A stretch of DNA of 64,000 nt from IMG/VR virus record IMGVR_UViG_3300017766_003232, positions 1-64,000 of that record; one strand, given 5' to 3'. The notes below the pieces were generated by a model. That model was not told where the DNA came from. It made no database searches and saw only the letters and a program-made list of their open reading frames with translations. This document shows positions 1 to 62,189 of the stretch, piece by piece. A program made the position numbers and the translations under genes. Position 1 is the first letter of the stretch, and every line of letters starts with the position of its first letter. Source of the stretch: a virus (lineage: Duplodnaviria > Caudoviricetes).

Positions 1-3000
1 AATAGACCAAATATTGAGACTTCTGCAAAAGCATACAATGTAAGTGCAGATAATTATTATAATGAAGTTTTAAATGCTGTAACTAAATATGATGCAGAAT
101 TAGCTGCTATAGAAAAAACTACTACTACTACAGAAGATATAGAAAAAAGGAGACAAAAAGAGTATAATACTCAATATAATGCTCTTGTTTCAGGACAAGT
201 TTTAGATAATCAAGGAGACTCAGTATATGAAGAAGATAAAGGAATAGGAGCAAATGGTTTATCTACTTTAACGGATAAAAAATATGGTCATGGTCATATT
301 AGGACTAGTGGATTAAATTCTTTAGAAGTACTGGAAAAATTATTAGATGGTTCTGACTTTTCAGGAATGTTTGGTGAAATTGGTAGTGGTGTATATAATA
401 CTTGGGAATCTGGTAAATTTATAATTGTATCTAATAATATTAATCCTACTACAAATAATAAATTAAATCTAAATGAAATAGAAATTATACTTAATGCAGG
501 GTTAAGTCCATTTGCTCAAGAATTAGCTAATAAATATCCTAATGTAGTATTTAAAGATTTTAATGGTAAAAAATACGATGCAAAACTAGTTGCTTTAGGA
601 CAAAATACAAATGTTGTAAAAACTCAAAAAACAGAGTTACAAAAAATAGAACAGGTTAAAGATGTAGTAATAAATGGAGAAAAATATTCATACTATCCAT
701 TAGCTGCAAATAACACTTCTGTATTAATAGCAAATCAAGATTCTATTTTAATATCAGATATGTATGATAATATTTCAGAATTAAAAGTAAGTAATGAATC
801 AATCAAAGAAAATGACATTAAACCTGGTTCTATTTTTTATATGACTGTAGAAAAAGGAGTTCCTAGAATTGTTTCAATAGAAGAAAGTTTACCTGAATTA
901 GGTAATGAAAATGGTTTAAGAACTTATTCAATGAGAATAACTTCTTATGATGCAGGAGGATCAAAAGAAATAGAATCAGGAATTGGTGATTTAGGAAAAA
1001 TAAAATCATTTGAAAGTAGTGTTGGTAGAAATAATCTTAGTAAAAAAGAATTAGCTTCAGAATTAAATAGATTAGGAGTAAAAAAACTAAAAGTAAAACA
1101 AGGATTGATTTTACCTATTGTACCTTCACTTATTAATTATGGAAATTTTGATGAAGATACTACGGTTGAATTACCTAATGATTTAAACATAAATTCTAAT
1201 ATTACTTTTAAATCAAGTAATGTTTTTCAAAAAACTTTTAAATCTATTGCTACAGCAATTGTAGCAAGTAAATTACAATTTACTAAACCAGGTAGATTTA
1301 TAACTAAAAATGGTAATTTAACAAAAGAAGGAAAAGAAATATTAAGTAAATTAACTGACTCAACTCTTCCTAAAAACTTAAAAGATTTAGATAATTTAAT
1401 TTCAGATAATTTAGATAAATCATTATGGGAAAAACAAAAAGAAAATACTATAAATTCTATTGTTTTAGATGCTGTTACTCAAAATAAAAAAATAGCTCAA
1501 TCATTATTAAGTACAGGAAAAGTTAAATTTAATTCTGAATATAGCAATGCATTTGTTGCTACCAGAGAAACAATTAGAGTTAAAAATAAAGAAAATGTAC
1601 AAAAAACATTTAATAATAATATTCCAAGCTTACAAGAATTAAATTCTCCTAGTTTAGGACAAACTACATCCTTACAAGAGCAAGTAGAAAAAAATATACA
1701 AAGTAAAAATATTGATGTAGATGCTAAAAAAATAGCAGATAATATTATAGATTATCCTATTCAAACATTAACAACACTTGCTACTCAACAACTTGTTCTA
1801 CCAACAGAAGAACAAATTAATGAGCAAAAACTTTATAAAAGAGCATTGGAAATTAGATCTGAAAATCAAGAATCTGATAAACCAAAAACAAAACGTACAA
1901 AGTTTAGACCAAATATTAGTAGAGATGTTGATGATTTTGTAGATATGGATGTAACAGCTTCTGAATCATTAAAAGAAGCTGAATCAAAACTTAAAATTAG
2001 TGGACTTAGTATTTCTCAACAAGATACATTGATTAAATACATTGCTTCAAACATTGTACAAAAATCAGTTGAAAATGAGAAAAAAACAGGAAGTAAAGAT
2101 TTTAATTACTCACATATTTTTGAAGAACACAAACAAGAAATTGAAGACATAATTGCTGATTATGAAGAAGATGGATATATTGAACAAGCAGAAAAGTTGA
2201 AAAATGTTCTTAAAGAATATGAAAAACTTAAAGGTTTTGTAAATGATTATCTATCATTAATGACTACTGGAAAAGTAAGACAAGTAAAAAATAAAACTGA
2301 AAATGAAGATGTAAATGATGAAGCATTATCAACAGGATTAGAAAATGTTTTACATACAGATGATTGGTCTTTAACAATGGATTCAAAATCAACAGCATCT
2401 GCTGATTTAAAGAAATTCTTTTCATTTATTAAAGATGTTGATCTTATAAATGGTGAGTATGTAGAAAAAACAAATTCATTAGGTTTTCCAGAAGTTGTAT
2501 TGTTTGATACAGTTTACAATACATTGCATGAAATATTAGCTGATTTACCTGCTGACTATGATCAAATGTTGACTCAATTAGAAGCATACAAAAATCAATT
2601 CCCATGGATTGAAAATGTAATTGAGCAATTAGAAAATGGACCAAAGCATATTAAAAACGAGTTTGTTTCTGATATGGCAAAGCATGGAATAAAAATGCGT
2701 TCTATTATTTGGCAAAAAACAAAAGATGGTTCATTTGAAATGACAAGTTATGATGCAAATTCTTCATCTACTCAACAAAGATTGTTGAATGTATGGGAAT
2801 CTAATCTAAGGTCAACATTGAATACTTCTCGTTTAGTTATTACAAATAATGACGGAGATTATATTTACAATCAAGAATCTGTAGATATTCTATTAGAACA
2901 AGCTAAGAACTGGAAAGAGAATCCTCCAAGTAAAAACAGTAAAGATGATGATGCTGCTGTAATGAATTGGTTAAATTCACTTGGTATTTTTATATCTAAT

Positions 3001-5439
3001 CAAACATTCAATGCTTTGAAAAAAGGTACATATAAAAATAAATCTATTCTTTCTTACGAAGGATTATTTAATAAATCAAATGGTTTAATTAATGTTTTAG
3101 CAAGTGAATTAAAAAATAAAAGAAACACTAAAGTTGATGAATCTAGATTACTAAAAGATACAGTTGTTAAAAACTTAGCAATGATTGAAGCATTATATGC
3201 AACAAATGTATATAGTAACTCATTTAATGCTGGAGGTAAAACAGTTTACACATTTAGTAATAATAAATGGGTTGTAAATAGATTTCGTGACTTAGGTAGA
3301 ACAGATGAAAATGATGAACCATTAAACAAAGATTTAATTGAAGGATTAGAAAAAATTGCATTTACTAGAGATAGTCTTTGGTTAGAGCAATTAAAAAACA
3401 ATCCTGAATTTAGAAATCATTTTGGATTAGATTATTTATCATTAGAAGCAATTAAAAAGAAATTTACACCTTCTAAAGATGGAATGAAATTAAATAATCT
3501 ATCAGATGCAGAGCATGAAGCAATTAAACTTGCTTTATTTATGAATGCTGCTAAACCAGGTGAAGAAGGTAGAAAAGTATCATTTTTCTATCCTACTAAC
3601 TCTGATAAAACTACAATGATGGTAATGAATGCATTATCTCAAAAATTTGAGTTAGATAAAAACTTTAATTTTAATGCAGATTCATTGACATTAAATGAAA
3701 ATGAAGAAGCAGTTTTATCAGATGAAACATTAGATACTTTGTACAAAGCAATCGTTTTACCTGAAATAGCAAGGATTAGAGCGAATAAAGAAAATAATAT
3801 AGCTGGTTATAACGGAAATGCATTTTTCTTTCTTAAATCTCTTAATGTAGTTGAATATGAAGGTAAGACAATATTGGATCATGTAATAGAAGGAACAGAT
3901 GTTCTTTCTGATGAAAAACTTGATGAAATTATTAAGTCAGAACTTTCTGTTATGTTTAACGAATTGCTTCGTAGAAAATTAGAAAACTGGAATGAATCAG
4001 GAATTGGAAAAACAAACAATGATACAAAAGAAAAAAATACATTCTTGGATAGCAAATATATGCAAGGTAAAATCAAAGGTGTTAAATATGCAAGAGTTAA
4101 ATTTGCTGCTGCTGATTTTATTTTTAATTCATTAATAGCAAATGCAGAAGCAATTAAATTAGTTGTTGGAGATCCTGCTTTATATTGGAAAGAAGCAAAA
4201 GGTAAAAATGTTACAATTTTGGATCACATTCGTGAAACAGAAATTAACATGGGTAAACGTCTTGCTGGAGATATTGCACCTGGTATAGAATTAGCAAATG
4301 CTTCTAAAAACAATTATTATCAAGTATTTATTGATGATAAAAAAGTTGGAAGTAAAGGTTTATTATTTGAAAACAATAAAGCAAAATTAAAATCTATTTT
4401 AGATCCAGAAGTATTTGCAAAATATGAAAAAGGAATAGAAGGTGCAGATGCTCAGGAATACACTACTTGGAAAGAACATTTATATGTATTGAAACAATTA
4501 GGTAGATTAACTGAAAAGCAATATACAAAAATGTATAATCTATTGCAAGATGGAAAATCTTTAGAAAATGCAGATTTAAAATTAGTATTGCAACCAATGA
4601 AACCTGTTTATGTAGGTAATATGTTGGATATTGATCAACAAGTTGATAGAAGAATATACATTAAATCTTCAAGTTTTCCATTATTACCACAATTAACATC
4701 TGGATTTGGATTAGATACATTGAGAAATGCATTAGAAGATTTTGAAAAAAGAATGAGTTCTAAAAATTCTTCTAACTTAGATGGTACAAAAGTAACTGTA
4801 AGAGCATCTTTTAATACTGCAAATAAGGTAGGAGCTATAAAAAATTCATTAAAAGTTTACAATAAAGAAGGTAAATTCAATGATGTTATAGAAATCAATG
4901 AAGAAAATTCTTTAAAATTATCAAGAGAAAATTTTAGAATTCAGCAAGATGTTCCTTATGATCCTAATAAGGAAAAAATAAATGTTGGTACACAGGAACG
5001 TAAATTATTGTTCAACAACATTTTAGATATGGAAGGATTTAAAATGTTTGGTGATGATAAACAATACAAAGGAAGTGAGATAAAACAAATTTACGACAAT
5101 GCTTATAAAGATATTTTTGAACATTCTGTAAACAAATTAAAAAGTCAACTTGGTTTATCTGAATATTCTATTGATGCAAGTGTTGATAGTTTATTGGAAA
5201 TTCCAGATACTAATACTTTTGATGTTTTAGATAAAATGAACAAAGAATTGGAAACAGTAAAAGGTAGTCAAATTAAAAAAGAACAAGTAAAAGCTAAATA
5301 CGAAGAAATAGTAAATAAAAAAGATATTGAAAGAGCAGATTATATTAATAAGCATTTTGATGAAATTATTACTAAATTCGCAGAAGCAAAAATTAATATT
5401 TTCTTCAATGAAGATGGAGAAACTAAAAAATGTAATTAA
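1..5439 (+). CDS. Giant virion protein carrying the N-terminal (beta-like) half of the crAss-type virion RNA polymerase; 5'-partial
   Basis: Frame 1 is open from base 1 through the track's ATG at 367, so the gene starts upstream of the window. The C-terminal third has motifs typical of crAss/phi14:2 vRNAP (KRLAGDIAPG, DAQEYTT, QPMKPVYVG, YIKSSSFPL, RENFRIQQDVP, GTQERKL). It is syntenic with the DFDxD-bearing gene downstream. Confidence 0.8.
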   Translation, partial: NRPNIETSAKAYNVSADNYYNEVLNAVTKYDAELAAIEKTTTTTEDIEKRRQKEYNTQYNALVSGQVLDNQGDSVYEEDKGIGANGLSTLTDKKYGHGHIRTSGLNSLEVLEKLLDGSDFSGMFGEIGSGVYNTWESGKFIIVSNNINPTTNNKLNLNEIEIILNAGLSPFAQELANKYPNVVFKDFNGKKYDAKLVALGQNTNVVKTQKTELQKIEQVKDVVINGEKYSYYPLAANNTSVLIANQDSILISDMYDNISELKVSNESIKENDIKPGSIFYMTVEKGVPRIVSIEESLPELGNENGLRTYSMRITSYDAGGSKEIESGIGDLGKIKSFESSVGRNNLSKKELASELNRLGVKKLKVKQGLILPIVPSLINYGNFDEDTTVELPNDLNINSNITFKSSNVFQKTFKSIATAIVASKLQFTKPGRFITKNGNLTKEGKEILSKLTDSTLPKNLKDLDNLISDNLDKSLWEKQKENTINSIVLDAVTQNKKIAQSLLSTGKVKFNSEYSNAFVATRETIRVKNKENVQKTFNNNIPSLQELNSPSLGQTTSLQEQVEKNIQSKNIDVDAKKIADNIIDYPIQTLTTLATQQLVLPTEEQINEQKLYKRALEIRSENQESDKPKTKRTKFRPNISRDVDDFVDMDVTASESLKEAESKLKISGLSISQQDTLIKYIASNIVQKSVENEKKTGSKDFNYSHIFEEHKQEIEDIIADYEEDGYIEQAEKLKNVLKEYEKLKGFVNDYLSLMTTGKVRQVKNKTENEDVNDEALSTGLENVLHTDDWSLTMDSKSTASADLKKFFSFIKDVDLINGEYVEKTNSLGFPEVVLFDTVYNTLHEILADLPADYDQMLTQLEAYKNQFPWIENVIEQLENGPKHIKNEFVSDMAKHGIKMRSIIWQKTKDGSFEMTSYDANSSSTQQRLLNVWESNLRSTLNTSRLVITNNDGDYIYNQESVDILLEQAKNWKENPPSKNSKDDDAAVMNWLNSLGIFISNQTFNALKKGTYKNKSILSYEGLFNKSNGLINVLASELKNKRNTKVDESRLLKDTVVKNLAMIEALYATNVYSNSFNAGGKTVYTFSNNKWVVNRFRDLGRTDENDEPLNKDLIEGLEKIAFTRDSLWLEQLKNNPEFRNHFGLDYLSLEAIKKKFTPSKDGMKLNNLSDAEHEAIKLALFMNAAKPGEEGRKVSFFYPTNSDKTTMMVMNALSQKFELDKNFNFNADSLTLNENEEAVLSDETLDTLYKAIVLPEIARIRANKENNIAGYNGNAFFFLKSLNVVEYEGKTILDHVIEGTDVLSDEKLDEIIKSELSVMFNELLRRKLENWNESGIGKTNNDTKEKNTFLDSKYMQGKIKGVKYARVKFAAADFIFNSLIANAEAIKLVVGDPALYWKEAKGKNVTILDHIRETEINMGKRLAGDIAPGIELANASKNNYYQVFIDDKKVGSKGLLFENNKAKLKSILDPEVFAKYEKGIEGADAQEYTTWKEHLYVLKQLGRLTEKQYTKMYNLLQDGKSLENADLKLVLQPMKPVYVGNMLDIDQQVDRRIYIKSSSFPLLPQLTSGFGLDTLRNALEDFEKRMSSKNSSNLDGTKVTVRASFNTANKVGAIKNSLKVYNKEGKFNDVIEINEENSLKLSRENFRIQQDVPYDPNKEKINVGTQERKLLFNNILDMEGFKMFGDDKQYKGSEIKQIYDNAYKDIFEHSVNKLKSQLGLSEYSIDASVDSLLEIPDTNTFDVLDKMNKELETVKGSQIKKEQVKAKYEEIVNKKDIERADYINKHFDEIITKFAEAKINIFFNEDGETKKCN

Positions 5440-5915
5440 TGGAAAAGTTACTAACAGAAGTAGAAATCAAAGCTTTAAATAAGTTTGGTCAATTTGAAAT
5501 GATAGCAAGTCATACTTATATGTTTCTTGCAAACAGAATGAAATCATTAGGGTATTTCGGTGCAGAAAAATTTTTCAATGCGGAATCAGACGATGAGCGA
5601 AGTCATTATAGAAAGCTTGAAGCATTCATGAATGACATGGGTTGTGAGTTATCTGTTGAGTCATTAGAAAATATAACATTAAATATTTCAAATATTTCAG
5701 ATGCATTAAATCACGCTTTTCAAATGGAGCGTGATTTGTTAGATGCATACGAATCAGTTGCTGGAGGTACATTAGTTTCTTTTAAAACTCGTGTAGTTTT
5801 ACAAGATTTTGTAAACTTTCAAATTGGAGCAGTTGGTGAATATGGAGATTTAATTGCTCGTTTAGCATTAAATGGTGATGTATTAGTGTTTGATAATGAA
5901 TTAGGTGAAAAATAA
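5439..5915 (+). CDS. ftn: Ferritin (non-haem, four-helix bundle)
   Basis: 158 aa with ferroxidase-pattern residues (FEMIASHTY, GAEKFF..ESDDERSH, QMERDLL, QIGAVGEY, FDNELG). Its start overlaps the upstream stop (TAATG). Confidence 0.85.
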   Translation: MEKLLTEVEIKALNKFGQFEMIASHTYMFLANRMKSLGYFGAEKFFNAESDDERSHYRKLEAFMNDMGCELSVESLENITLNISNISDALNHAFQMERDLLDAYESVAGGTLVSFKTRVVLQDFVNFQIGAVGEYGDLIARLALNGDVLVFDNELGEK

Positions 5916-5922
5916 GTAAGAT

Positions 5923-8900
5923 ATGAGCTGTCAATATTGGGTAAAAGATAAATGGGTTTCTGAAGAACAATTCAAAGAAATGTTACAAAATGGTCTATTA
6001 GATCATTATATCCATGAAGGTAAATTTAAATTAGAAGGATTTAAATTAAAACCTAAAAGAAAAGAAAAAGTTGCAGCTCGTACTACAATACCTGCTTCTA
6101 AATTGGCTGAACTATTAACTGAAGAAGTAAAAACAAGACAAGGATACCCAGAAAATATTCTGGCAGCATTGGAACTTACTCCAGATGGTAGTGATTTTAA
6201 AATACCATTATGGGCAAGTAACTATGCTGATAAATTTGAGAGTTTATTAACTGCAATAATTAACAATAAAATTGTTAAACAAAAATTTAGCGGTCACTCA
6301 TATGTACTTGGTTCGGAAGAAGGTTTTGAATTAAAAGAAGGAGAAGAAGCAATGGAAGAATTAAAAAATTCTAAAATTGTTTTTTCAGATAGTTTTAATC
6401 CTGAATTAGGGTTACTACCAATAAGATTTGATGAAAAAACAGGTGAATTATTACCTGGTCAAATAATGATTCCATTTAACTTTAAAAATAAAGATAAAAA
6501 AGGTAATAAATTAAAATTATCTGATTATACAAAAATGGTGGATGGTAGAATGATGATTGACATGGATAAGATACCAGAAAAAATGTTACGTTTATTTGGT
6601 TTCCGTATTCCTAGTCAGGCACATAACTCTATGGCTTCATTAGAGATAGTTGGTTTTCTACCAGAAGAAATGGGAGATTTAATGTTAGCTCCAAAAGATT
6701 TTACAGTACAGATGGGATCGGATTTTGACGTTGATAAATTGTATACTTATATGTACAATGTAAAGCTTCAAAAAGATGGAAAACTTAGTACAGATTTTGA
6801 TTCTGAAAAAGAGCTAATAGAAAATAGACAAAACACTATTTTAGATATTCATCATGCTGTTTTAAGTAATTCAAATGAAGATATGGTACGTGCTATTTTA
6901 GCACCTGATTCATTTGGAGAATTTGAAGATTTAGCAAAAGAAGTATATGATTTAAAAGTTAAAAGTGGTCAAATTAAAGATACACCTACTTTGCTTTCAG
7001 ATGATTATCAAAAAAATAAATATATCAATGCTACAGCAGGTAAAGATGGTGTAGGTAACTTTTCTTTAGATTCTACTTTTAATTCTATTATACAAGGGAA
7101 AGAACTTGTTTATTTTATAAATGATGATCCAACAATACCTATTCCAAATAACTATAAAGACAGAATAATGAAAAATAACTTTTCTGTTTTATTTGGTGAT
7201 ATTGAATCAAGAGGAGATTTATCAAATCCTTATACTTTAAATTCTCAAAAAATAATTGAGAAAGCTGGTGGTATTGATAAGTTATCAAAAGAACAAAAAA
7301 GAGCATTAAAATTTAAATCTAAAGTAATTCAAGGTTTACAATCATCTGCTGTAGATAATGAAAAAGCACAAATTCTTGATAAATTAAATATCAATAATGA
7401 TACATTTGATACTATTAGAGCAATGTCATTATTGGGATTTGAAGAAAATGAAATAGTTGGTTTAATTACACAAGATATAATTGTTGAATATGTTAAAGCA
7501 ATGAAATCAAATAATTCATCTTTAACATCTTACAATCCAAATGCATTAAAAGATTTCAAAGATAATTTTATAAAAAAATACGATCCAACTGGAAAAATTA
7601 ATGATATTATTGTAAATAAAGAAGATACAATTGATAAATATAAAAACAAATCTACAGGAACTGAATTAATTAATAAATTAAAAGATTCTCAATTAGTAGA
7701 AGGAAAAGAAGCATCTGATAAAGTTATTGAGCAATATTTCTTACTTGAAAAATTCTTACAATTAGCAGATGTAGGTAAGACAATTAAATCTGTTCAATCT
7801 TCTATTAACACAGAATCTTCTGGTTTACCAAAAAATTTAATTGAAACAAAAACAAAAGTTGATCAAATAAATCAATTAGAAACTAGTTCTATTTTAAATG
7901 CTGAAACATTATTAGGTGAATATGAAAATGGTAAACTTGTATTGCCAAATACAATAAATGGATTCGCTGCGTTCCATGGTGCAATCTTTGGATATTCTAT
8001 TTATGAAAAGTTTTTCCCTTATAGCAATAATGGTTTACAAACTCAATTAACAGATATTTTAAATCATATTCCAAATGGTTCAACTTTTTCATTATCAAAA
8101 TTAACTGAATTTAAAATGGATGTAATGGACGAAATTCGTTCATACTTATTTAGTGATCCTTCTATTGGTATACATAGTGGAAATTCATTTTCAGAGCAAG
8201 TAAGATTATTTATTGATAGTGAAAATAATGATTCATTAGCTACTATTTTTGAAAAAATCAAAAAGAAAAATGAAGCATGGTTTATAAAAAATCAATTTTT
8301 AAATAAATTAAGCACAAGCTTACAAACAAATGGTTCAGCATCAAGAATCAATTTTGAAGCTTCTACAGGTGAAAACTTAGACGAGAAAGACATTTACTTA
8401 GGTTTCTTAAATTTATTGAATACAGAGCGTGATTTAGGCAAGTTTAATGGTATTCAATACTCATCAAGAACATTTGCACAAGATTTAATTTCTTATGCTT
8501 ATTTAGAAGGTGGTCAACAAGGTGCTAAACAATTCTTAAAATACATTCCAGTAGAATATCTGAAAGCACTTGGGTTTGGTGAATATTTAAGTAAAGTAGA
8601 TTTTTCTTTTACTCAACTATTTAAAGGAGCAGTTAATGATATTGGAGAACCGATTTATGATCTTCCATCTCGTTTTACAAGACAATTTTTTCAAAACAAT
8701 CCTGATAAAGTTAGAAAAATTTCAACAAATGAAACTATTGTTTCTAAGGATGAAAGAGAAATGGAAATCAAAAAAGATTCAATCAGTAATTACTTAGCAA
8801 ATGATGAAACATTAACTAAATTCTTAGCAGTTTATGATGCAAAAGCACCTGGAAAACACAGATTATATGAATATGATTCTTATAGTAGGAAATATTTAAG

Positions 8901-11541
8901 AATACCTACTATTAAAAATGATTATGGATTTAAACAATATGATGTACATAATGACATTAATGTTCCTTCTCAAAAAATAGGATATGCAGTTGCTCCTGGA
9001 TTTCAAAAAAGTCAAAGTGTTCCAACAAAAGTTGAAACAAATGCTAAACAGGTTCAAAATACAAATCCAATTATTAAATTATCTGGATTAAAATTAAATA
9101 ATTCTTTAAAAAATAAAGAAGCAATTGTTGATTTATTAAATAAAATAAGTGAATCATCAACAAATTCATATTACAAAAAATTAGCAGAGTTATATGCTGA
9201 TTTAAATTATCCAGAAAACTTTAAATTTAATTTAGATAGTTCAGAAAATCCAAGAGTAAAAGCAAGTTTTAATAGTGGTTCAAACACATTGACTCTTTAT
9301 AAAAATTTATATAAAGAAGATGAATCTATTAATGATTTAGCAGAAGCAGTTTTACATGAATTAACTCATTTATTTACAAGTTCAGTTGTTAAAGATTTTA
9401 ATGTTAATCCAAATAGTGTTACAACAAAACAAAAAACAATTTTAAATAAAATAAAAGGTTTACAAGCAAAATATACAAAGTCATTATCTAAAGCTGAATT
9501 ATCTGAATTATATACATTCAGAAAAAGCTATTGGGATATGAAATTGAAAAACAATCAAGTATCTAAAGAAGAGTATGATAATATTTTAAGTGAACCAATT
9601 AATGGAGTTGATGATCTATTTAATAATGAAGGAGAAATCAAAAAAGGATTTACAAATAAATATTATGGTTCAATTAAATTAGAGGAATTCATTACAATGG
9701 CTCTTACAAATGCTGATTTCCAAAGATATTTAAATAAAATTACAGATAGTGATTCTAAAAGTTTATTAGGTAAATTCTTATCTGAGATTGCTGAATTAAT
9801 TGGATCATTAATTGGAATTAATGTTGAAAAAGGTTCATTATTAGAATCATCATTAATTGAAATAAATAATTTAATAAAAGAAAATCAAGCACAAGAAATA
9901 GAAGATAATAGTGTTGAAAATACTAAATATCAATTATTTCCAGGTGTATATGCAAATTCTGGTCAAACAAAAGCTTTAGACAAAATGTCTGAATTTCTTA
10001 AAAATGATGATGACCAATTTTTATTAAAAGGTAGAGGTGGTACAGGTAAAACTACTATTATTAAGAAGATTATTGATAATAGTGGAATACTGCATAATAG
10101 AATTATTGGAGCTACTGTAGCAGATGAAGCTAGAGGAATTTTAGCTAGTAATTTACCTTCTACTATTACTACTAAAACTATGGTAGGATTATTAGGTTTA
10201 GTTCCTGACTATAGTAAACAAGGGGACTTATACTTTAGAGAAAGAAATACAAGAGAACAAATGGAATTTGATAGTAAAGGCAAATCAGATCCTATTGAAA
10301 ATGCTAAATTAATTATCATTGATGAAGCATCTATGGTCTCAAAAGATCTTTATGACATCTTAATGCGTAAAAAACTAAAAGATGCTAAAGTAATTTTTAT
10401 GGGGGACAATGCACAAATTCCACCTATTAATGAAGATGGTAAAAGTACAGACAGTCCAGTATTTAGTTTACTAGAAAAAGGTACTAATTTTTCAGAATTA
10501 ACTGAAAGAATGCGTCAAGGTGAGGAAAGTCCAATATTACCTGTAACAGATGTTTTTGCAGAAAACATTGAGAATATACAAAGAGGAGAAGTTGGGAAAG
10601 CTAATCCACTTAAAAATAGAACAGATGTTTTTGATACAGCTTCTAATTCAGGAGTTGAGTTTATAAGTGATAAACAAACTTTAATAGATAGTTTTATAGA
10701 AGATTTTCGTCAAAATAACGATACAAAAAATGCTATTATTATTGGAGCGAGAAATGAAATTGTAGATAATTTTTCTAAATTAATTAGACAAAAATTATTT
10801 GATGCAACAGATCCTTTTGTAGTAGGAGATGTTATTAGAGTAAATTCTCCACATATAGTAAATAACCAAGTAGAATTTGCCAATGGGTTTAAAGGTAAAG
10901 TTACACAAGTATCACCTCTAGGTGCTAATCAATTAGGAATACAATTGTATAATATTACTGTAGAATATGATAGTTTAGATTCAGCAGGAAATCCTATAAG
11001 ATCTATAGCTAATTTAACAACTGTTTCTCCTGAAAATAAATTAGATGTAAAAAAAGCTCTTAAAAATTTAGCAGCAAAAGCAAAAGCAAAATTAATTCCT
11101 TGGAAAGTTTTTTATACATTAAAAGAATCTATTGTAGATGTAGGATATAATTATGCAATTACTGCTCATAAAGTACAAGGATCTACTTACAAAAATGTAT
11201 ATGTTTTAGAAGAAGATATTATGAGTTTCCCTGGAGGAAAACTTCAGCAAAACAGAATGATGTATACAGCTGTTTCTAGACCTAGTACTAAATTGGTTAT
11301 ATTTAGTAATAAAAACAAAGTACAAGCAGAAAATGCAGAATTTAATCCTGATTATTTTTCTAATCAAACTCCTCCAATGAGAGAAGATGGAGATCCAGGT
11401 TTTGATCCTACTTTCGATCCAGAAAATTTTAGTAAATTTGGTGGAAATAATGATTTTGATAATGATAGATTTGATCCTTCAACAATGTATGATCTTCCAT
11501 CATTAGAAGAATTTGATAATTTAAAACGAATTTGTAAATAA
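5923..11541 (+). CDS. Virion RNA polymerase catalytic (beta'-like) subunit fused to a zincin metallopeptidase and an SF1B (Dda/RecD-like) helicase
   Basis: GFRIPSQ and GSDFDVDKL (DFDVD at 6721-6735). HELTH zincin motif at 9355-9369 with downstream EEF. Helicase motifs GRGGTGKT (10030-10053), DEASM, GDNAQIPP, ERMRQ, YAITAHKVQGST, YTAVSR. Confidence 0.9.
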   Translation: MSCQYWVKDKWVSEEQFKEMLQNGLLDHYIHEGKFKLEGFKLKPKRKEKVAARTTIPASKLAELLTEEVKTRQGYPENILAALELTPDGSDFKIPLWASNYADKFESLLTAIINNKIVKQKFSGHSYVLGSEEGFELKEGEEAMEELKNSKIVFSDSFNPELGLLPIRFDEKTGELLPGQIMIPFNFKNKDKKGNKLKLSDYTKMVDGRMMIDMDKIPEKMLRLFGFRIPSQAHNSMASLEIVGFLPEEMGDLMLAPKDFTVQMGSDFDVDKLYTYMYNVKLQKDGKLSTDFDSEKELIENRQNTILDIHHAVLSNSNEDMVRAILAPDSFGEFEDLAKEVYDLKVKSGQIKDTPTLLSDDYQKNKYINATAGKDGVGNFSLDSTFNSIIQGKELVYFINDDPTIPIPNNYKDRIMKNNFSVLFGDIESRGDLSNPYTLNSQKIIEKAGGIDKLSKEQKRALKFKSKVIQGLQSSAVDNEKAQILDKLNINNDTFDTIRAMSLLGFEENEIVGLITQDIIVEYVKAMKSNNSSLTSYNPNALKDFKDNFIKKYDPTGKINDIIVNKEDTIDKYKNKSTGTELINKLKDSQLVEGKEASDKVIEQYFLLEKFLQLADVGKTIKSVQSSINTESSGLPKNLIETKTKVDQINQLETSSILNAETLLGEYENGKLVLPNTINGFAAFHGAIFGYSIYEKFFPYSNNGLQTQLTDILNHIPNGSTFSLSKLTEFKMDVMDEIRSYLFSDPSIGIHSGNSFSEQVRLFIDSENNDSLATIFEKIKKKNEAWFIKNQFLNKLSTSLQTNGSASRINFEASTGENLDEKDIYLGFLNLLNTERDLGKFNGIQYSSRTFAQDLISYAYLEGGQQGAKQFLKYIPVEYLKALGFGEYLSKVDFSFTQLFKGAVNDIGEPIYDLPSRFTRQFFQNNPDKVRKISTNETIVSKDEREMEIKKDSISNYLANDETLTKFLAVYDAKAPGKHRLYEYDSYSRKYLRIPTIKNDYGFKQYDVHNDINVPSQKIGYAVAPGFQKSQSVPTKVETNAKQVQNTNPIIKLSGLKLNNSLKNKEAIVDLLNKISESSTNSYYKKLAELYADLNYPENFKFNLDSSENPRVKASFNSGSNTLTLYKNLYKEDESINDLAEAVLHELTHLFTSSVVKDFNVNPNSVTTKQKTILNKIKGLQAKYTKSLSKAELSELYTFRKSYWDMKLKNNQVSKEEYDNILSEPINGVDDLFNNEGEIKKGFTNKYYGSIKLEEFITMALTNADFQRYLNKITDSDSKSLLGKFLSEIAELIGSLIGINVEKGSLLESSLIEINNLIKENQAQEIEDNSVENTKYQLFPGVYANSGQTKALDKMSEFLKNDDDQFLLKGRGGTGKTTIIKKIIDNSGILHNRIIGATVADEARGILASNLPSTITTKTMVGLLGLVPDYSKQGDLYFRERNTREQMEFDSKGKSDPIENAKLIIIDEASMVSKDLYDILMRKKLKDAKVIFMGDNAQIPPINEDGKSTDSPVFSLLEKGTNFSELTERMRQGEESPILPVTDVFAENIENIQRGEVGKANPLKNRTDVFDTASNSGVEFISDKQTLIDSFIEDFRQNNDTKNAIIIGARNEIVDNFSKLIRQKLFDATDPFVVGDVIRVNSPHIVNNQVEFANGFKGKVTQVSPLGANQLGIQLYNITVEYDSLDSAGNPIRSIANLTTVSPENKLDVKKALKNLAAKAKAKLIPWKVFYTLKESIVDVGYNYAITAHKVQGSTYKNVYVLEEDIMSFPGGKLQQNRMMYTAVSRPSTKLVIFSNKNKVQAENAEFNPDYFSNQTPPMREDGDPGFDPTFDPENFSKFGGNNDFDNDRFDPSTMYDLPSLEEFDNLKRICK

Positions 11542-11542
11542 A

Positions 11543-14500
11543 ATGGGAGATTTTTGTCCAAATAAATCAACTCCAGAATGGAAAATTCTGGAAGAACAAG
11601 TAGGTTCGGATTTAGCAATGTATACTTGGTTGTATTATGGTAATAACATACCAAATGTTCAATCATCTAGTAAAATTAAACGTGATTTAAGATTCAGACC
11701 AAACGAAGAACGAATGGAAAGAATTTATCATAATATTAATGTTTACAATCGTAAAAATTCAACATCTCATTATGTAAGTAAAGTAAAATCATATGGTAAT
11801 ACATTTGATGTTACTTTACATTATAATTATTTACCAGTAAATATTGAAAAGAAAAGACAGCAACAAATGCGTAGAAAAGATACGTTTGTTGTTGAAAATT
11901 TTAATTCTACAGGGTTTAATGAAACATTTAGACCAAAACCAAATGACAGACTTACAAGTCCTGCAATGGATGAAAATATTCAATCTATAAATGAAGATGG
12001 AGATGTTGTACATCCAGATAATATACCTATGGACATGGATTATTTGGTTGATGATGCATCTTTACAAATTTCTAAAACAGAACAAAAAAGAAAGAAAAGT
12101 ATTGATGCTGAAATAATAAAATTAAAAGCACAATTAAATTCTACAACTGATCCATTATTAACAAAAGGATATTTAGCAAAGATTCAAAAATTAAAAAATG
12201 ATTCTGAAGATGCAGATAAAAGAATTGCAGTTGCTAAAAAAATAAACGAAGAAGGTGATTTTACAAATGTATTAATGTATGCAGAAAGCCAATTAAAATT
12301 GGTTGAAGAAATTTTATCTGAAGATGTAGTATCAGCTGACAATATTCTATTAGCACAAAGAATAATCAATCTTTGGAAAAAAGCTGGAGACTTTTCAGAA
12401 GATCCTACAAAACATATTATTTTAGATGAAGATGAGGTAAATACATCTGATATACGTAATTCATTTAGACTTAAAGCAGGTCAAGCAGAAGATTTAGAAA
12501 GACTATTAAATCCTTTAAAAGAAAGGTATATTGTAAATTTTGTAAATGAAAATATTGATACTACATTAAGTAAAGAAGAAATATTTAAAAATTTAAAAGA
12601 TGCAGGAATGCTAACATCTAATTTTTTACATCTTGGTAGAAATGAAGATGCAATGGTTCAAGCATTGTTTGCAGCAGTTGAATCTGCTAATATATTAGCT
12701 CAAAATGAAGCAACTGCTTTATGGAAAGAGTTAGATAGTCTTACTGAAAAAGCAATCTCTAAAGCAAAAGGAATAAGTCCTGATAAAAATCCATTTAGAA
12801 TTTATTCTCAAAAAACTAAATCTGGTTTAGATACTGGAAAGATGGTACATAGATTTTCTGCTGAATTTTTTACAAAAGCACAAGAATTAAAATATCAAGC
12901 TTTTCAAAAAATTGATCCAAAAACAGGTAAAAAATCAGGTACAAAAAGAGAAATTGCAAATTATTATAAATGGATGAATCAAAACACAATAACGTTTGAT
13001 TATAGAAAATTATTTGTGGATACAGATGAAAATGGAATGATACCTGCTGAATTTCTATTTGCAGATAATTTTTCATCAGATGAAAAATCTAAACATATCA
13101 ATGAGCTAAAAGAAAATTTAGGAGAAAAAGGATATGAAATTTATATGAAACAACTTGAAGCAAAGTTTGAAAAATTTAAAACAATGCGTGAAGTTGAATG
13201 GGATAGAATTTCTGGACTTAGTGTAAGTGATGATGTTAAAAAAACAATATTTGAAAATTGGAATAAAGAAAATTCACCTTTTTGGTATTCTGAAATGTTA
13301 GAAAAAGAATCATTAAAAACAAAAAAAAATGGTGAATATTACAATACTTTCAATGCTCAAAAATATACACAAGAAATACCTAAAAAATTCATAGATGGAA
13401 AAAGAACAGAATGGTATGATTCAAACTTTGAGAAAATAGAAAACGATGTAGATTTGCTTAATTACTACAACCATTATATGGATTTGTTAAAGCAAATGAA
13501 ATCTGTTCTACCACAAGACAAACAAAAGTTAATGGGTATGAATGATATTCCAAAAATGAAACAATCACTAATGGATCAATATGCTGAAAAAGGTATGTTG
13601 ATGGGTGTATTACCTTTCTGGAATAAAATGCAAGAAATGATTACTACTACAGATTTAGCAACTATTGATAATTCTGATATTGATCCATTCACAGGAATTA
13701 AAGAAAAAAATATTAATATTTCATATGTTGAGGATGTTAATCAAAAAATAAATGATCTTGTAAAAATTAAAAAAATTAAATACGAACAAGAATTTGGTGC
13801 AACAAAAGGTCCAATAACAGAAACTATAATAAAGCAACTTAGAGAAGAAGCAAGACATGAAATAGCACAAGAAAATTCATTTGATTTAACTAAGATAATG
13901 AAGGCATATAGTGTTATGGCATTGGGGTATAAGCATAAATCTATTATAGAACCACAAGTTAGAATGTTAGAACAAGCTTTTAAAAATAGATCTGAGATTC
14001 AAACAAATAAAGCAGGTAAAATAAGTACTCAAAATGGTAAAGAAATTGCTCAAAAAGGATTATCAAATTTAACAAAGCAATTTGACTTTACATTGGATAC
14101 ATCTTTTTATAACTTAGGTGGTAGAAAAGTAGAAGGTGTAAGTAAAAAGAAAGCATTTACAACTCTTGAAAAAGCTAAAATTAAAGAGTTAAATGTTCTA
14201 TTAGAAAATGCTACAAGTGAAGAAGATAGAAAATTAATTCAAGAAAAAATTGATAGCATTGGAGGAAATGTTACAGGAAGTGCTATAGGTGATATGTTTT
14301 TAAAATATATGACATTTAAAGGTTTAGGATGGAACGTTGGTTCAGCATTTTCAAATATGTCATTTGGTTTTATTTCTAATCTTACAAATGCTTCTGAAAC
14401 ACCTGCTGATTTAAAAAGAATGAAACGAGCATATAAAAAAGTTGTTCATTCAATTGGTAGAAATGCAAGTTTTAATACTATTTCAACAGATGAAGCAATA

Positions 14501-15631
14501 AAGATCAGGTCATTTATGGATAAATGGGATTTAATGAAAACTTCAAACAATGAGTTATTTGAAAAAAGTGAGAAATCATCAATTAAAAAAGGTTTAGGTA
14601 GATTTGGTCCAATGACTATGCAAGAGCGTTCTGAATACTTGAATTATGCTCCAATAATGATTTCTCAAATGATGGCATTTAAAGCAAAAGATGCTGATGG
14701 AAATGAGGTTGAATTATGGGATGCATATGATAAAGATGGTCAATTAAAAGAAGGATACACAACTGATGTAAATGAGGTAAAATTGATTCGTAAAATCAAA
14801 AGAATGATTGAAATGAGTCATGGTGATTACAACAATGCATTAAAAGTAAAAGCAACAATTGGAGGTAGATTTTTAACACAATTTCGTACTTGGATGTTTG
14901 AAGGTTTTGCTACAAGATTTGAATCTGAAAAAATAGATTATGCTTTAAGCTATGGTCGTGATAGTGAATATATTAGAAAAGGTAGATATAGATCATATAC
15001 TGCTGGTCAATTAACAACAGCAGGGATAGCACTTGGTACTACTATTTTACCAGGTATAGGTACAGCAGTTGGAGCAGCATTAGGTTTTGGAATTGGTAAA
15101 ATTGCAGGTATGAAAACTGATCAGTCAGCAATTAATGACACAGTATTTACATTAAAACAATTAGTTAGAAAGTTAATGTTTAAATCTACAAAATTTGAAG
15201 ATAGATTTACTGAAACAGATGCTGCTAATATGCGTAAGAATATGACAGAATTATATTTTCTAATGGGTGTTGCAGGATTAACTTTGTTACTTACAGCAAT
15301 GGGAGGAGACGATGATGATGATAAACAATTTGCTGCTAATTTTCTATTAAATCAAATGACACGTATGCAAACGGATATTACGTTTTATACAAACCCAATG
15401 GAAGCAGAAAAATTAACAAAAACAGCAATTCCAGCATCTCAATTATTGGTTGATGTTGTTGATTGGTTTGGAGATGTTAAAAATTTATATAATGAAGATT
15501 TAAAAGACGATACATTTAGATCTGGTCCATTCAAAGGTTCAAGCAAAGCATTGATTCATTTTGGCGAAATGATTCCATTTGCAGCTCAAGGAATTAAACT
15601 TAAACGAACAGCAACTACATTGTTGAAATAA
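11543..15631 (+). CDS. Large virion core/ejection protein (crAss cargo-type)
   Basis: 1362 aa, largely helical and directly after vRNAP. N-terminus CPNKSTPEWKIL; C-terminal Gly-rich hydrophobic segments. Function is inferred from synteny. Confidence 0.6.
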   Translation: MGDFCPNKSTPEWKILEEQVGSDLAMYTWLYYGNNIPNVQSSSKIKRDLRFRPNEERMERIYHNINVYNRKNSTSHYVSKVKSYGNTFDVTLHYNYLPVNIEKKRQQQMRRKDTFVVENFNSTGFNETFRPKPNDRLTSPAMDENIQSINEDGDVVHPDNIPMDMDYLVDDASLQISKTEQKRKKSIDAEIIKLKAQLNSTTDPLLTKGYLAKIQKLKNDSEDADKRIAVAKKINEEGDFTNVLMYAESQLKLVEEILSEDVVSADNILLAQRIINLWKKAGDFSEDPTKHIILDEDEVNTSDIRNSFRLKAGQAEDLERLLNPLKERYIVNFVNENIDTTLSKEEIFKNLKDAGMLTSNFLHLGRNEDAMVQALFAAVESANILAQNEATALWKELDSLTEKAISKAKGISPDKNPFRIYSQKTKSGLDTGKMVHRFSAEFFTKAQELKYQAFQKIDPKTGKKSGTKREIANYYKWMNQNTITFDYRKLFVDTDENGMIPAEFLFADNFSSDEKSKHINELKENLGEKGYEIYMKQLEAKFEKFKTMREVEWDRISGLSVSDDVKKTIFENWNKENSPFWYSEMLEKESLKTKKNGEYYNTFNAQKYTQEIPKKFIDGKRTEWYDSNFEKIENDVDLLNYYNHYMDLLKQMKSVLPQDKQKLMGMNDIPKMKQSLMDQYAEKGMLMGVLPFWNKMQEMITTTDLATIDNSDIDPFTGIKEKNINISYVEDVNQKINDLVKIKKIKYEQEFGATKGPITETIIKQLREEARHEIAQENSFDLTKIMKAYSVMALGYKHKSIIEPQVRMLEQAFKNRSEIQTNKAGKISTQNGKEIAQKGLSNLTKQFDFTLDTSFYNLGGRKVEGVSKKKAFTTLEKAKIKELNVLLENATSEEDRKLIQEKIDSIGGNVTGSAIGDMFLKYMTFKGLGWNVGSAFSNMSFGFISNLTNASETPADLKRMKRAYKKVVHSIGRNASFNTISTDEAIKIRSFMDKWDLMKTSNNELFEKSEKSSIKKGLGRFGPMTMQERSEYLNYAPIMISQMMAFKAKDADGNEVELWDAYDKDGQLKEGYTTDVNEVKLIRKIKRMIEMSHGDYNNALKVKATIGGRFLTQFRTWMFEGFATRFESEKIDYALSYGRDSEYIRKGRYRSYTAGQLTTAGIALGTTILPGIGTAVGAALGFGIGKIAGMKTDQSAINDTVFTLKQLVRKLMFKSTKFEDRFTETDAANMRKNMTELYFLMGVAGLTLLLTAMGGDDDDDKQFAANFLLNQMTRMQTDITFYTNPMEAEKLTKTAIPASQLLVDVVDWFGDVKNLYNEDLKDDTFRSGPFKGSSKALIHFGEMIPFAAQGIKLKRTATTLLK

Positions 15632-37952: not shown

Positions 37953-38831
37953 TTAAAATATATAACGTATTGTATTCCAAGGTATTATTTTATTATGTAA
38001 CTTAGTAAAAGAATTTATAAAATCATTTTTTAAATGATGTTTATATCTAATGTTTTTACCACCATGTTGTGATATTTTATTTTCTTGTATTGTAGGAACC
38101 CATAAATATTCACTTTCTCCTGGAAGATTATTAAGTACATTGTAAATATGTTTATTTTCATTGTGAGTAAGAAATATAACTTCAGCTTTAACAATGTCTT
38201 TATAACTTACATAATCATTTATCATATGAAATAGATTTTCATATTCTTCTAACCAATTACTTGTAACTATTACAGGACTAAAGTTAATATGAACATCATA
38301 TCCAGCATCTATAAATGCATCAATAGCTTTAATTCTATCAATTATTTTAGATGTATTAGGTTCTAATAAATCAGCAAATGTTTGTGGCATTAAGCTAAAT
38401 CTAATTCTAATTTTTTCTTCTGGATTATATTCAAGAAGTTTTGGATTTACATATTTAGTAGCAAATGTACCCATGGCTATAGGATGTTGCTTAAAAAAGT
38501 TAAATGTTTCTTCCCAATCCCAATGTTTAAGATGTAATGCCATGTCGGAATTACAACCTATATCATATGTAATATATTCAGAATGTGTTTGATTAGGTTT
38601 TTTTACATTTGTAAAATAAGCATGATTATTTATAGTTGTAAGAATATCTCCTGTATTTTTAGCAATTGTTATATCTTCATTAACATGACGTTTGCAATAA
38701 CAATATGTACATTCAAAGCCACAACCAAAAATAAAACTTGGTGTCATAAAATCACTGGACCTACCAGATTCAGTGATTTTTAATGTTTTTCTTGTAACTT
38801 TTTTTATCATACATTTTAGATATTTTTTCAT
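37953..38831 (-). CDS. splB: Spore photoproduct lyase-like radical SAM protein
   Basis: CGFECTYCY (CxxxCxxCY), GCNSD, FATKY, RIRFSLMP, HINFSPVI, YRY-like C-terminus; start probably at M8. Confidence 0.8.
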   Translation of the reverse strand: MKKYLKCMIKKVTRKTLKITESGRSSDFMTPSFIFGCGFECTYCYCKRHVNEDITIAKNTGDILTTINNHAYFTNVKKPNQTHSEYITYDIGCNSDMALHLKHWDWEETFNFFKQHPIAMGTFATKYVNPKLLEYNPEEKIRIRFSLMPQTFADLLEPNTSKIIDRIKAIDAFIDAGYDVHINFSPVIVTSNWLEEYENLFHMINDYVSYKDIVKAEVIFLTHNENKHIYNVLNNLPGESEYLWVPTIQENKISQHGGKNIRYKHHLKNDFINSFTKLHNKIIPWNTIRYIF

Positions 38832-61071: not shown

Positions 61072-61890
61072 ATGTGTAATTGTGATGATTGCGGTGGAAT
61101 AACGCTGTTTAAAGGACAAAAAGGAGATACTGGAGCAACAGGTGCAACTGGAGCAACAGGATTGAATGGTGCTAATGGTGCTAATGGTACTGATGGAACT
61201 AATGGAATACATGGTGGCTTTTCATCAAATTGGTTATTTTCAACATCTATTACATCAACTTATCCTACTTCAACTTTTTTAAAATTTGATAGTACTACAT
61301 ATAGTGCTGTAACAAATATTAAAGTAAATGTTTCAAACATAGATAACACTAATATGACTAATTTCTTAAATTCATTTAAGAATACAATCAATAGTGTTAA
61401 TAACTATGGTTTAATTAGAATATATGAAAGTATAGATTCTAATACTTTTTGGATGGGTAAAATAACATCTGTAAATGCTTTAGATGCTACTACTTTTAAT
61501 ATTGGAGTAGAGCACATACAATCTAATGGAACATTTTTAAATACAGATAGTATAATTGTTGATTTTACCCCATTTGGTACAATATCTAGTACAAAAACAA
61601 CTGTGTTAGCAATAGGTTCTTGGGATATGTTAACATCTGCAACTAAAGTATTAACACATGGATTAGTTGGTTCTGATATTATATCTGTAACAGGAATTTT
61701 AAGAAATGATGCTGTAGATGCTTATTACCCTATTCCTTATAGTTCACTTTCAAATAGTATAGATTTATATATATCATCAATTGATAACACATCAATAACA
61801 TTGATAACAAAAACAGGTAGTATTTTTCAATCTTCTAACTTCAATGAATCAGCAATGAATAGAGGTTATATAACAATTATAACTCGTTAA
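61072..61890 (+). CDS. Collagen-like repeat tail/fibre protein
   Basis: GQKGDTGATGATGATGLNGANGANGTDGTNG G-X-Y repeats; starts MCNCDDC. Confidence 0.75.
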   Translation: MCNCDDCGGITLFKGQKGDTGATGATGATGLNGANGANGTDGTNGIHGGFSSNWLFSTSITSTYPTSTFLKFDSTTYSAVTNIKVNVSNIDNTNMTNFLNSFKNTINSVNNYGLIRIYESIDSNTFWMGKITSVNALDATTFNIGVEHIQSNGTFLNTDSIIVDFTPFGTISSTKTTVLAIGSWDMLTSATKVLTHGLVGSDIISVTGILRNDAVDAYYPIPYSSLSNSIDLYISSIDNTSITLITKTGSIFQSSNFNESAMNRGYITIITR

Positions 61891-61892
61891 TT

Positions 61893-62189
61893 ATGTGTGA
61901 ACCATTTGAAATAACAGATTATGATAATATACCTCCAGATGTATGTTATAAACTTGTTATATGGAGTTTACAACAAAAATATTCTAATTTGACATACTCT
62001 TATTTACAAAATATTCAATTTGGTAATTTTTGTAATGGTGAATTTGAAAGAGTAAAAATGTTTAAAAGAGCATTAATGGTTTTAAATAGATATGACATTC
62101 GTGATATTGTTTCTAATACTACAGAATATAATTTAATTACTTATACAGAAATTAAAAAAATTATAAATATTCTTAAAAATAATTACTAA
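61893..62189 (+). CDS. Hypothetical tail-module protein
   Basis: 98-aa helical ORF coupled to the fibre gene (TAATG). Confidence 0.55.
   Translation: MCEPFEITDYDNIPPDVCYKLVIWSLQQKYSNLTYSYLQNIQFGNFCNGEFERVKMFKRALMVLNRYDIRDIVSNTTEYNLITYTEIKKIINILKNNY

Follow-up and report, generated by a model that had tools for sequence, protein, structure and literature searches.

The DNA analysed here, 64,000 nucleotides (nt) from positions 1 to 64,000 of the IMG/VR virus record IMGVR_UViG_3300017766_003232 (Duplodnaviria, Caudoviricetes; hereafter the window), begins with three genes for giant proteins, P1, P2 and P3. In the window these proteins are almost devoid of cysteine (Cys), and the four Cys residues that they do contain are located at the ends where one protein faces the next. 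According to sequence homology, P1, P2 and P3 are pieces of one polypeptide of 4,800-6,650 residues in other crAss-like phages, and in related loci the facing Cys residues accompany the split of this polypeptide into separate genes. We consider it rather probable, from the sequences and by analogy with a cyanophage, that the facing ends dock and that disulfides re-link the split polyprotein as a P1-S-S-P2-S-S-P3 thread, which would hold the two halves of an RNA polymerase together and order the exit of the cargo.

Translation yields a single Cys in the window part of P1, at residue 1811/1812 (codon 5431-5433, ..KKCN), exactly two in P2, Cys 3 (5929-5931) and Cys 1871 (11533-11535, ..RICK), and one in P3, Cys 5 (11555-11557, MGDFCPN), the C-terminus of which is without Cys. 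All four lie 2-5 residues from facing termini. The three proteins together comprise 5,046 amino acids (aa), for which ~53 Cys would be expected from the content of ~1.06% across the remaining open reading frames (ORFs) of the window, compared to 4 seen. Assuming uniform placement, the chance of finding one Cys in each of four 5-residue facing ends is ~2e-11; the terminal-Cys pattern is real and far above chance. The positions given in an initial annotation of the window are borne out exactly, as are the facing Cys ends in the order P1-P2-P3, although a ferritin-like ORF between P1 and P2 had been overlooked (Table 1).

The same annotation credited P1 with a single Cys, which is correct for the 1812 visible residues but not for the 5' part of the gene elsewhere on the contig. 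Base 1 of the window is also the first base of its contig (88,921 nt), and the 5' part of P1 (1556 aa, with two internal Cys) lies at the other contig end, at 84254..88921, in frame with window base 1. The two cargo-like proteins that precede it, of 768 and 879 aa, are free of Cys. A weak internal repeat (76% over 70 nt) is present near both contig ends within the P1 ORF. The giant ORF leaves the contig at its far end and continues in frame from base 1; the contig probably represents a circular or permuted genome broken at a repeat inside P1.

Table 1. Features of the window, and further loci with a ferritin-like gene in the junction gap
Feature	Position	Strand	Description
P1	1..5439	+	1812 aa visible, open at the 5' end; module parts M1 and M2
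Ferritin-like ORF	5439..5915	+	158 aa, between P1 and P2; Pfam PF00210
P2	5923..11541	+	1872 aa; predicted C-terminal RNA polymerase half and helicase
P3	11543..15631	+	1362 aa; last module, M4
Radical SAM protein	37953..38831	-	Spore-photoproduct-lyase-like
Collagen-repeat protein	61072..61890		Cys at residues 2, 4 and 7
Small ORF	61893..62189		Cys 2
Junction gaps with ferritin-like gene in other loci			L004-L010, L012, L015, L023, L037, L038, L046, L059

Profile comparisons assign the giant proteins to a virion RNA polymerase and cargo module. P1 matches phrog_16227, a giant crAss-type virion protein, at 5e-71 (positions 2752-2991), and the first part of P2 matches the consecutive part of this profile at 6e-64. 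On a hidden Markov model (HMM) of 4,954 positions made from 12 fully fused homologs, P1 is placed at 1481-2528, P2 at 2531-3761 and P3 at 3740-4948, while phi14:2 g066 spans 1487-3229 (1e-107) and crAss001 gp50 matches at 4e-98. The phi14:2 protein gp66 is a polymerase that has been crystallised (Drobysheva et al. 2021). The HMM spans of P1 and P2 compared to that of g066 therefore indicate that the polymerase gene of the window phage is cut in two, and by homology P1 and P2 are the two halves of a gp66-type RNA polymerase. The cut lies ~266 residues before the catalytic motif DFDVD (P2 residues 267-271), which is invariant in 30 homologs and corresponds to the DFDxD motif of two-barrel RNA polymerases. 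P2 also harbours an HExxH motif at residue 1145 and a superfamily 1 (SF1) helicase of the Dda/PIF1 type at residues 1345-1800 (window 9955-11320). A comparison of P2 with PDB sequences (phmmer and profile) matched only helicases and did not retrieve the gp66 structure, and neither megablast of the region nor tblastn of P3 against a phage collection gave matches. P3 is the ortholog of phi14:2 gp65 and crAss001 gp49. The cargo proteins of phi14:2 and crAss001 have been found in virions by proteomics (crAss001: PMC10172136), and because of this homology and their position after the structural genes, P1, P2 and P3 are most likely packaged in the virion and ejected.

The link between terminal Cys and gene splitting emerges from 79 related loci on viral contigs (25-56% identity). 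Junctions between adjacent ORFs were scored for an upstream Cys at most six residues from the end and a downstream Cys at most eight residues from the start. Both residues are present in 73 junctions, the downstream one alone in four and the upstream one alone in none; the 62 junctions with neither mostly represent the boundary with an unrelated protein preceding the module. Among background ORFs, 4.3% carry an N-terminal Cys and 8% a C-terminal one. The initial annotation had asked whether a C-terminal Cys and the N-terminal Cys of the next gene co-occur and whether both vanish where the genes are fused: they do co-occur, and both are absent from fused genes, the twelve fully fused giants (4,800-6,650 aa) being entirely free of Cys. 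Overall, the giant ORFs contain 243 Cys in 404,022 aa (0.06%), 98 of them internal, compared to 1.18% in 421 neighbouring ORFs.

The junctions fall at three recurrent HMM sites, ~1400-1480, ~2530 and ~3730-3830, where a full Cys pair is found in 12 of 13, 15 of 15 and 45 of 48 split junctions, respectively. Across 75 junctions, the Cys lies 1-5 residues from the C-end and 3-6 (once 8) from the N-end. Each chain has as many C-terminal as N-terminal Cys, and its free outer ends are without Cys. On a FastTree phylogeny built on the conserved polymerase part, the split or fused state changes at least 8, 3 and 9-10 times at the three sites. Independent contrasts on well-supported branches are concordant in 3, 3 and ~4 cases and discordant in none, numbers which are too few per site and become significant only with the three sites pooled (~10 to 0). 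Separately, overlapping ORFs in locus L022 (8891-8928) form a split without a Cys pair at HMM position 2134.

The terminal residues are conserved in homologs of the individual proteins as well. A search with P2 collected 120 homologs (35-49% identity, 1,213-2,550 aa), nearly all of which contain two Cys and no more: the first at residue 3 or 4, within a conserved MAC[EQK]Y[FY]V, and the second at position -2 or -3, within a conserved ..LL[IL]CGK or ..RICK. This holds independently of an inserted helicase, NADAR or SprT domain, and the deviating homologs are truncated gene calls or intein carriers (the inteins of P0054 and P0061 are internal and bring extra Cys). Cys 5 of P3 belongs to only 14 invariant columns in 31 P3 homologs. 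Directly observed are the terminal-Cys pattern, how well it is conserved and its strict association with split genes. In 51 of 65 distinct junctions, Lys or Arg occurs at most three residues before the C-terminal Cys, where a basic residue would make a reactive thiolate more likely. Next to the terminal Cys, neither His, Asp or Glu nor a second Cys is conserved that could complete a metal site. A complex prediction for P2 1700-1872 with P3 1-800, using own alignments, gave a score of 0.18 (mark 0.32) and points neither way. As a further feature of the P2 family, the segment at P2 residues 1345-1800, ahead of the C-terminal Cys peptide, is a domain-insertion hotspot (homologs P0002-P0120), which has accommodated SF1 helicases, NADAR and SprT-like domains and inteins with homing endonucleases, while the last 7 residues are unchanged.

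Cultured phages follow the same rule. In phi14:2, g067 has Cys only as its last residue, g066 has Cys 3 and Cys 2179/2180, and g065 has Cys 3 only. In crAss001, the only Cys of gp47 is at 2339/2341, gp50 has Cys 5, 1334 and 2404, and gp49 has Cys 5 only. The gp47 gene is located on the strand opposite to gp50 and gp49; with the partners encoded on opposite strands, the effect acts on proteins. DAC15 keeps the rule with its first partner gene likewise on the opposite strand, and the rule also fits IAS virus, cr108_1, cr4_1 (recoded), crAss002 and Leptolyngbya phage Lbo-JY46. In crAss002 (L089, 9270-9370), gp33 has probably been annotated with a start that lies 32 codons too far upstream; read from an internal Met, the protein begins with MSCTPSNP, which suits an N-terminal Cys opposite Cys 2019/2020 of gp32. 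Two smaller cargo-like proteins, FpV4 gp30 (L001/L093) and Lbo-JY46 protein 'a' (L091, 2626-4650), start with MKKKC, the Cys at residue 5 being their only one, and no protein ending in a C-terminal Cys was identified as their partner.

From these observations we infer a disulfide chemistry, the timing of its formation and a role in threading. Internal Cys are purged from the module, as in other injected phage proteins, and at each gene split one Cys is kept 1-5 residues from the new C-terminus and one 3-6 residues from the new N-terminus. The facing termini would dock, and their thiols would form an inter-chain disulfide as soon as the particle meets oxidising conditions, whereby the pieces would again become one nearly linear covalent chain. 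Such a chain could hold the two polymerase halves together and give the cargo a fixed order of exit from the head, as a single thread, until reduction in the host cytoplasm would free the parts. The facing thiols have to act together, and a disulfide is the simplest link between them; the position of the Cys, always a few residues from the chain ends, suggests a nearly linear joint, as threading would need. Inter-subunit disulfides are present in tail and portal-vertex proteins of crAss001 virions (PMC10172136). The initial annotation had pictured a staple for the split RNA polymerase and one ordered chain of cargo. The former idea fits, as P1 and P2 correspond to the two polymerase halves, with the bond itself as the predicted element. 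The latter can be retained for the pieces of the ancestral giant polyprotein but not for all cargo, since the two upstream cargo-like proteins are Cys-free and the chain would therefore be limited to those pieces.

Several points weigh against disulfide threading. Given a reducing host cytoplasm and, for gut crassviruses, a mostly oxygen-free habitat, the bond would call for an oxidant or catalyst, and no thiol oxidase or thioredoxin came up when ten Cys-rich ORFs of the window were scanned against Pfam. A disulfide between cargo proteins has not been directly seen in any crassvirus, and the equivalent bond in the cyanopodophage A4 (see below) was interpreted as stabilising the packed pre-ejectosome in a static manner (PMC12002296). 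Locus L004, from an otherwise fused clade, has a Cys-free split at site 1 (6234-6238). This split and that of L022 probably stem from recent nonsense or frameshift mutations, or from errors in sequencing, and hence the Cys rule may flag false splits. In the clade of L052, L067 and L075, the middle protein is without an extreme C-terminal Cys and has CxC (or CC) ~25-30 residues before the C-end (~320 in L052), while the last protein carries Cys 3 and, close to its own C-end, a Cx5-6C pair. L071 has an N-terminal Cys only. Finally, the three junction sites are shared, so that independent fissions are modest in number, and long branches are placed with uncertainty in the FastTree phylogeny.

The disulfide might instead be a static staple, which locks the packed cargo or the polymerase halves in the head and plays no role in threading. 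We regard this as unlikely, even though the A4 bond between gp27 and gp26 is described as stabilising a helix that sits within a pre-ejectosome cleft (PMC12002296), and disulfides serve as structural staples in the crAss001 tail (PMC10172136). A static staple could sit anywhere on an interface, whereas the Cys residues of the 75 junctions are always near the ends, in agreement with the need for a nearly linear joint; moreover, Cys pairs occur only at broken chains, and the chain order is restored even where the gene order is scrambled. Considerably less probable is the binding of a metal ion or an iron-sulfur cluster by the facing thiols, possibly in common to several chain copies, an alternative that the initial annotation had named as metal clasps. 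Single Cys from several chains can indeed share a metal, and in the clade of the window a ferritin-like gene is positioned exactly in the P1/P2 junction. Yet only one Cys per terminus is conserved, without the neighbouring His, Asp, Glu or second Cys sought above, the ferritin-like gene is confined to one junction type in one clade and its own Cys number varies, and the A4 structure features a plain disulfide (PMC12002296).

That the terminal Cys act singly, as anchors to the portal or capsid or as carriers of a modification, is more improbable still: unpaired N-terminal Cys do exist (FpV4 gp30, Lbo-JY46 protein 'a', L071 and the L052 clade), but upstream-only junctions number 0 of 139, the Cys counts match along the chains and the outer ends are Cys-free. 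An RNA-level signal, by which the Cys codons would fuse or couple translation through T4 gene 60-type bypass or termination-reinitiation, is close to refuted. It would draw on the matching codons that flank stop-start junctions only 9-60 nt apart in most loci, and on the Cys codon immediately before the stop in 17 of 75 junctions. In the other 58, however, the Cys codon is elsewhere; the gaps range from -8 to 62 nt and reach 481-505 nt in the 15 junctions where the ferritin gene intervenes, and an ATG is always found 2-7 codons ahead of the N-terminal Cys. TGT and TGC are both used for junction Cys, a mixture that indicates selection on the amino acid. Such a signal is also at odds with the opposite-strand partner genes of crAss001 and DAC15, explains neither the use of Cys alone nor the purge of Cys elsewhere, and would conflict with separate termini for each protein, such as the virion proteomics of phi14:2 implies. 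Gene 60-type bypass as such was rejected, as it needs a take-off codon at the stop, a short non-coding gap and the same mRNA, which the junctions as a set do not provide; a DNA-level motif, TGTAAnTAA, was considered and rejected likewise. A split intein would have N- and C-fragments of ~100 and 35 aa flanking the junction and was also discarded, given that the stretch behind the C-terminal Cys is only 0-4 residues long and that ahead of the N-terminal Cys 2-7; no intein domain was found in P1, P2 or P3.

The ORF between P1 and P2 matches the Pfam Ferritin family at 1.4e-13 (51.4 bits, cut-off 24.5) and contains Cys69. Orthologs of 157-164 aa occupy 15 of the 15 site-2 junctions found, exactly at the polymerase cut, and clade members that are fused at site 2 (L011, L031) have no ferritin-like gene there. 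Read by eye, the ferroxidase-type Glu/Tyr, ExxH, Glu and Gln positions are kept in the 15 orthologs; their own Cys are not conserved (0 to 4 each). The protein could be packaged, could be involved in iron handling or could serve as a source of oxidant. The cut within the polymerase itself and the ferritin-like gene in the junction are the specific traits of the window, and they are common to 15 loci of its clade.

Elsewhere in the window, a collagen-repeat protein (Pfam Collagen 2.5e-5, below cut-off) is followed by a small ORF, both with Cys close to the N-terminus. These Cys residues may knot the base of a trimeric fibre together by disulfides, which would be another use of terminal Cys in the virion. 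The block of replication and early genes includes a spore-photoproduct-lyase-like radical SAM protein (Pfam SPL, 4e-23).

Crassviruses are the most abundant phages of the human gut, and the junction rule bears on how podophages move protein cargo of megadalton size through a narrow tail while keeping it in the right order. It makes the linking of cargo testable in the cultured phages crAss001, phi14:2 and DAC15, predicts that fused polyproteins, such as gp32 of the fused-type phage FpV4 (4,287 aa), stay uncleaved, contrary to an earlier suggestion, and would explain why the giant genes tolerate repeated fission, the cut in the polymerase included. Furthermore, it helps annotators to separate true gene splits from frameshift errors. 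If disulfide threading is true, it would amount to a redox-gated protein delivery, which lets giant genes split and fuse freely.

Parts of this picture have precedents. Already known are the fused and split forms of the Crassvirales giant protein, the Cys depletion in N4-like phages and a single disulfide in A4; the terminal-Cys rule of Crassvirales is not among them, and we found no statement of it in the searchable literature. Close counterparts are the cargo blocks gp67-gp66-gp65 of phi14:2 and gp47-gp50-gp49 of crAss001 (Bayfield et al. 2023), which are homologous to and collinear with the window and share the Cys rule and DFDxD; the literature searched on these blocks does not mention cargo cysteines. 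Unlike these two phages, the window phage has the split inside the gp66-type polymerase, a ferritin-like gene in the gap and a helicase on the second half. In Schitoviridae, the ejected proteins (N4 gp50, DEV gp71-gp73) contain 0.00075% Cys compared to 0.865% in the proteome (PMC11445570), and giant injected proteins near free of Cys are thus shared with the crAss module (0.06% compared to 1.18%). In that family, however, depletion alone was described and ascribed to passage through the periplasm, whereas in the crAss module the terminal Cys is a conserved feature. A few end-proximal Cys in Schitoviridae ejected proteins were treated as annotation errors (PMC11445570); they might follow the same junction rule.

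The initial annotation knew of no such system, which is not quite right. In the cyanopodophage A4 (Anabaena phage A-4L), cryo-electron microscopy resolved a disulfide between gp27 Cys1715 and gp26 Cys5 in the pre-ejectosome (PNAS 2025; PMC12002296), i.e., between consecutive ejection proteins. Cys1715 (of 1717 residues, position -3) and Cys5 are the sole Cys of their proteins, and A4 resembles the window in having consecutive giant ejection proteins with terminal Cys, placed at -3 and 5 in A-4L and at -2 and 3 and at -2 and 5 in the window. The A-4L proteins gp26, gp27 and gp28 gave no match to the fused-giant HMM at E 1e-3, and the likeness would, as far as tested, be one of mechanism rather than ancestry. 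The A4 bond was seen in the particle, that of the window is a prediction from the genes, and the A4 study draws no tie to gene fission or fusion and no family-wide rule (PMC12002296). In contrast to A4, with one junction and without RNA polymerase involvement, the crAss chain has two or three junctions. As a tentative and rather doubtful generalisation, crassviruses and at least two unrelated cyanophage lineages might tie split injection proteins by terminal disulfides, such that more than 5,000 residues of cargo, both polymerase halves among them, would pass through the tail as one covalent thread, which the reducing cytoplasm of the host would cut and thereby switch the enzyme on.

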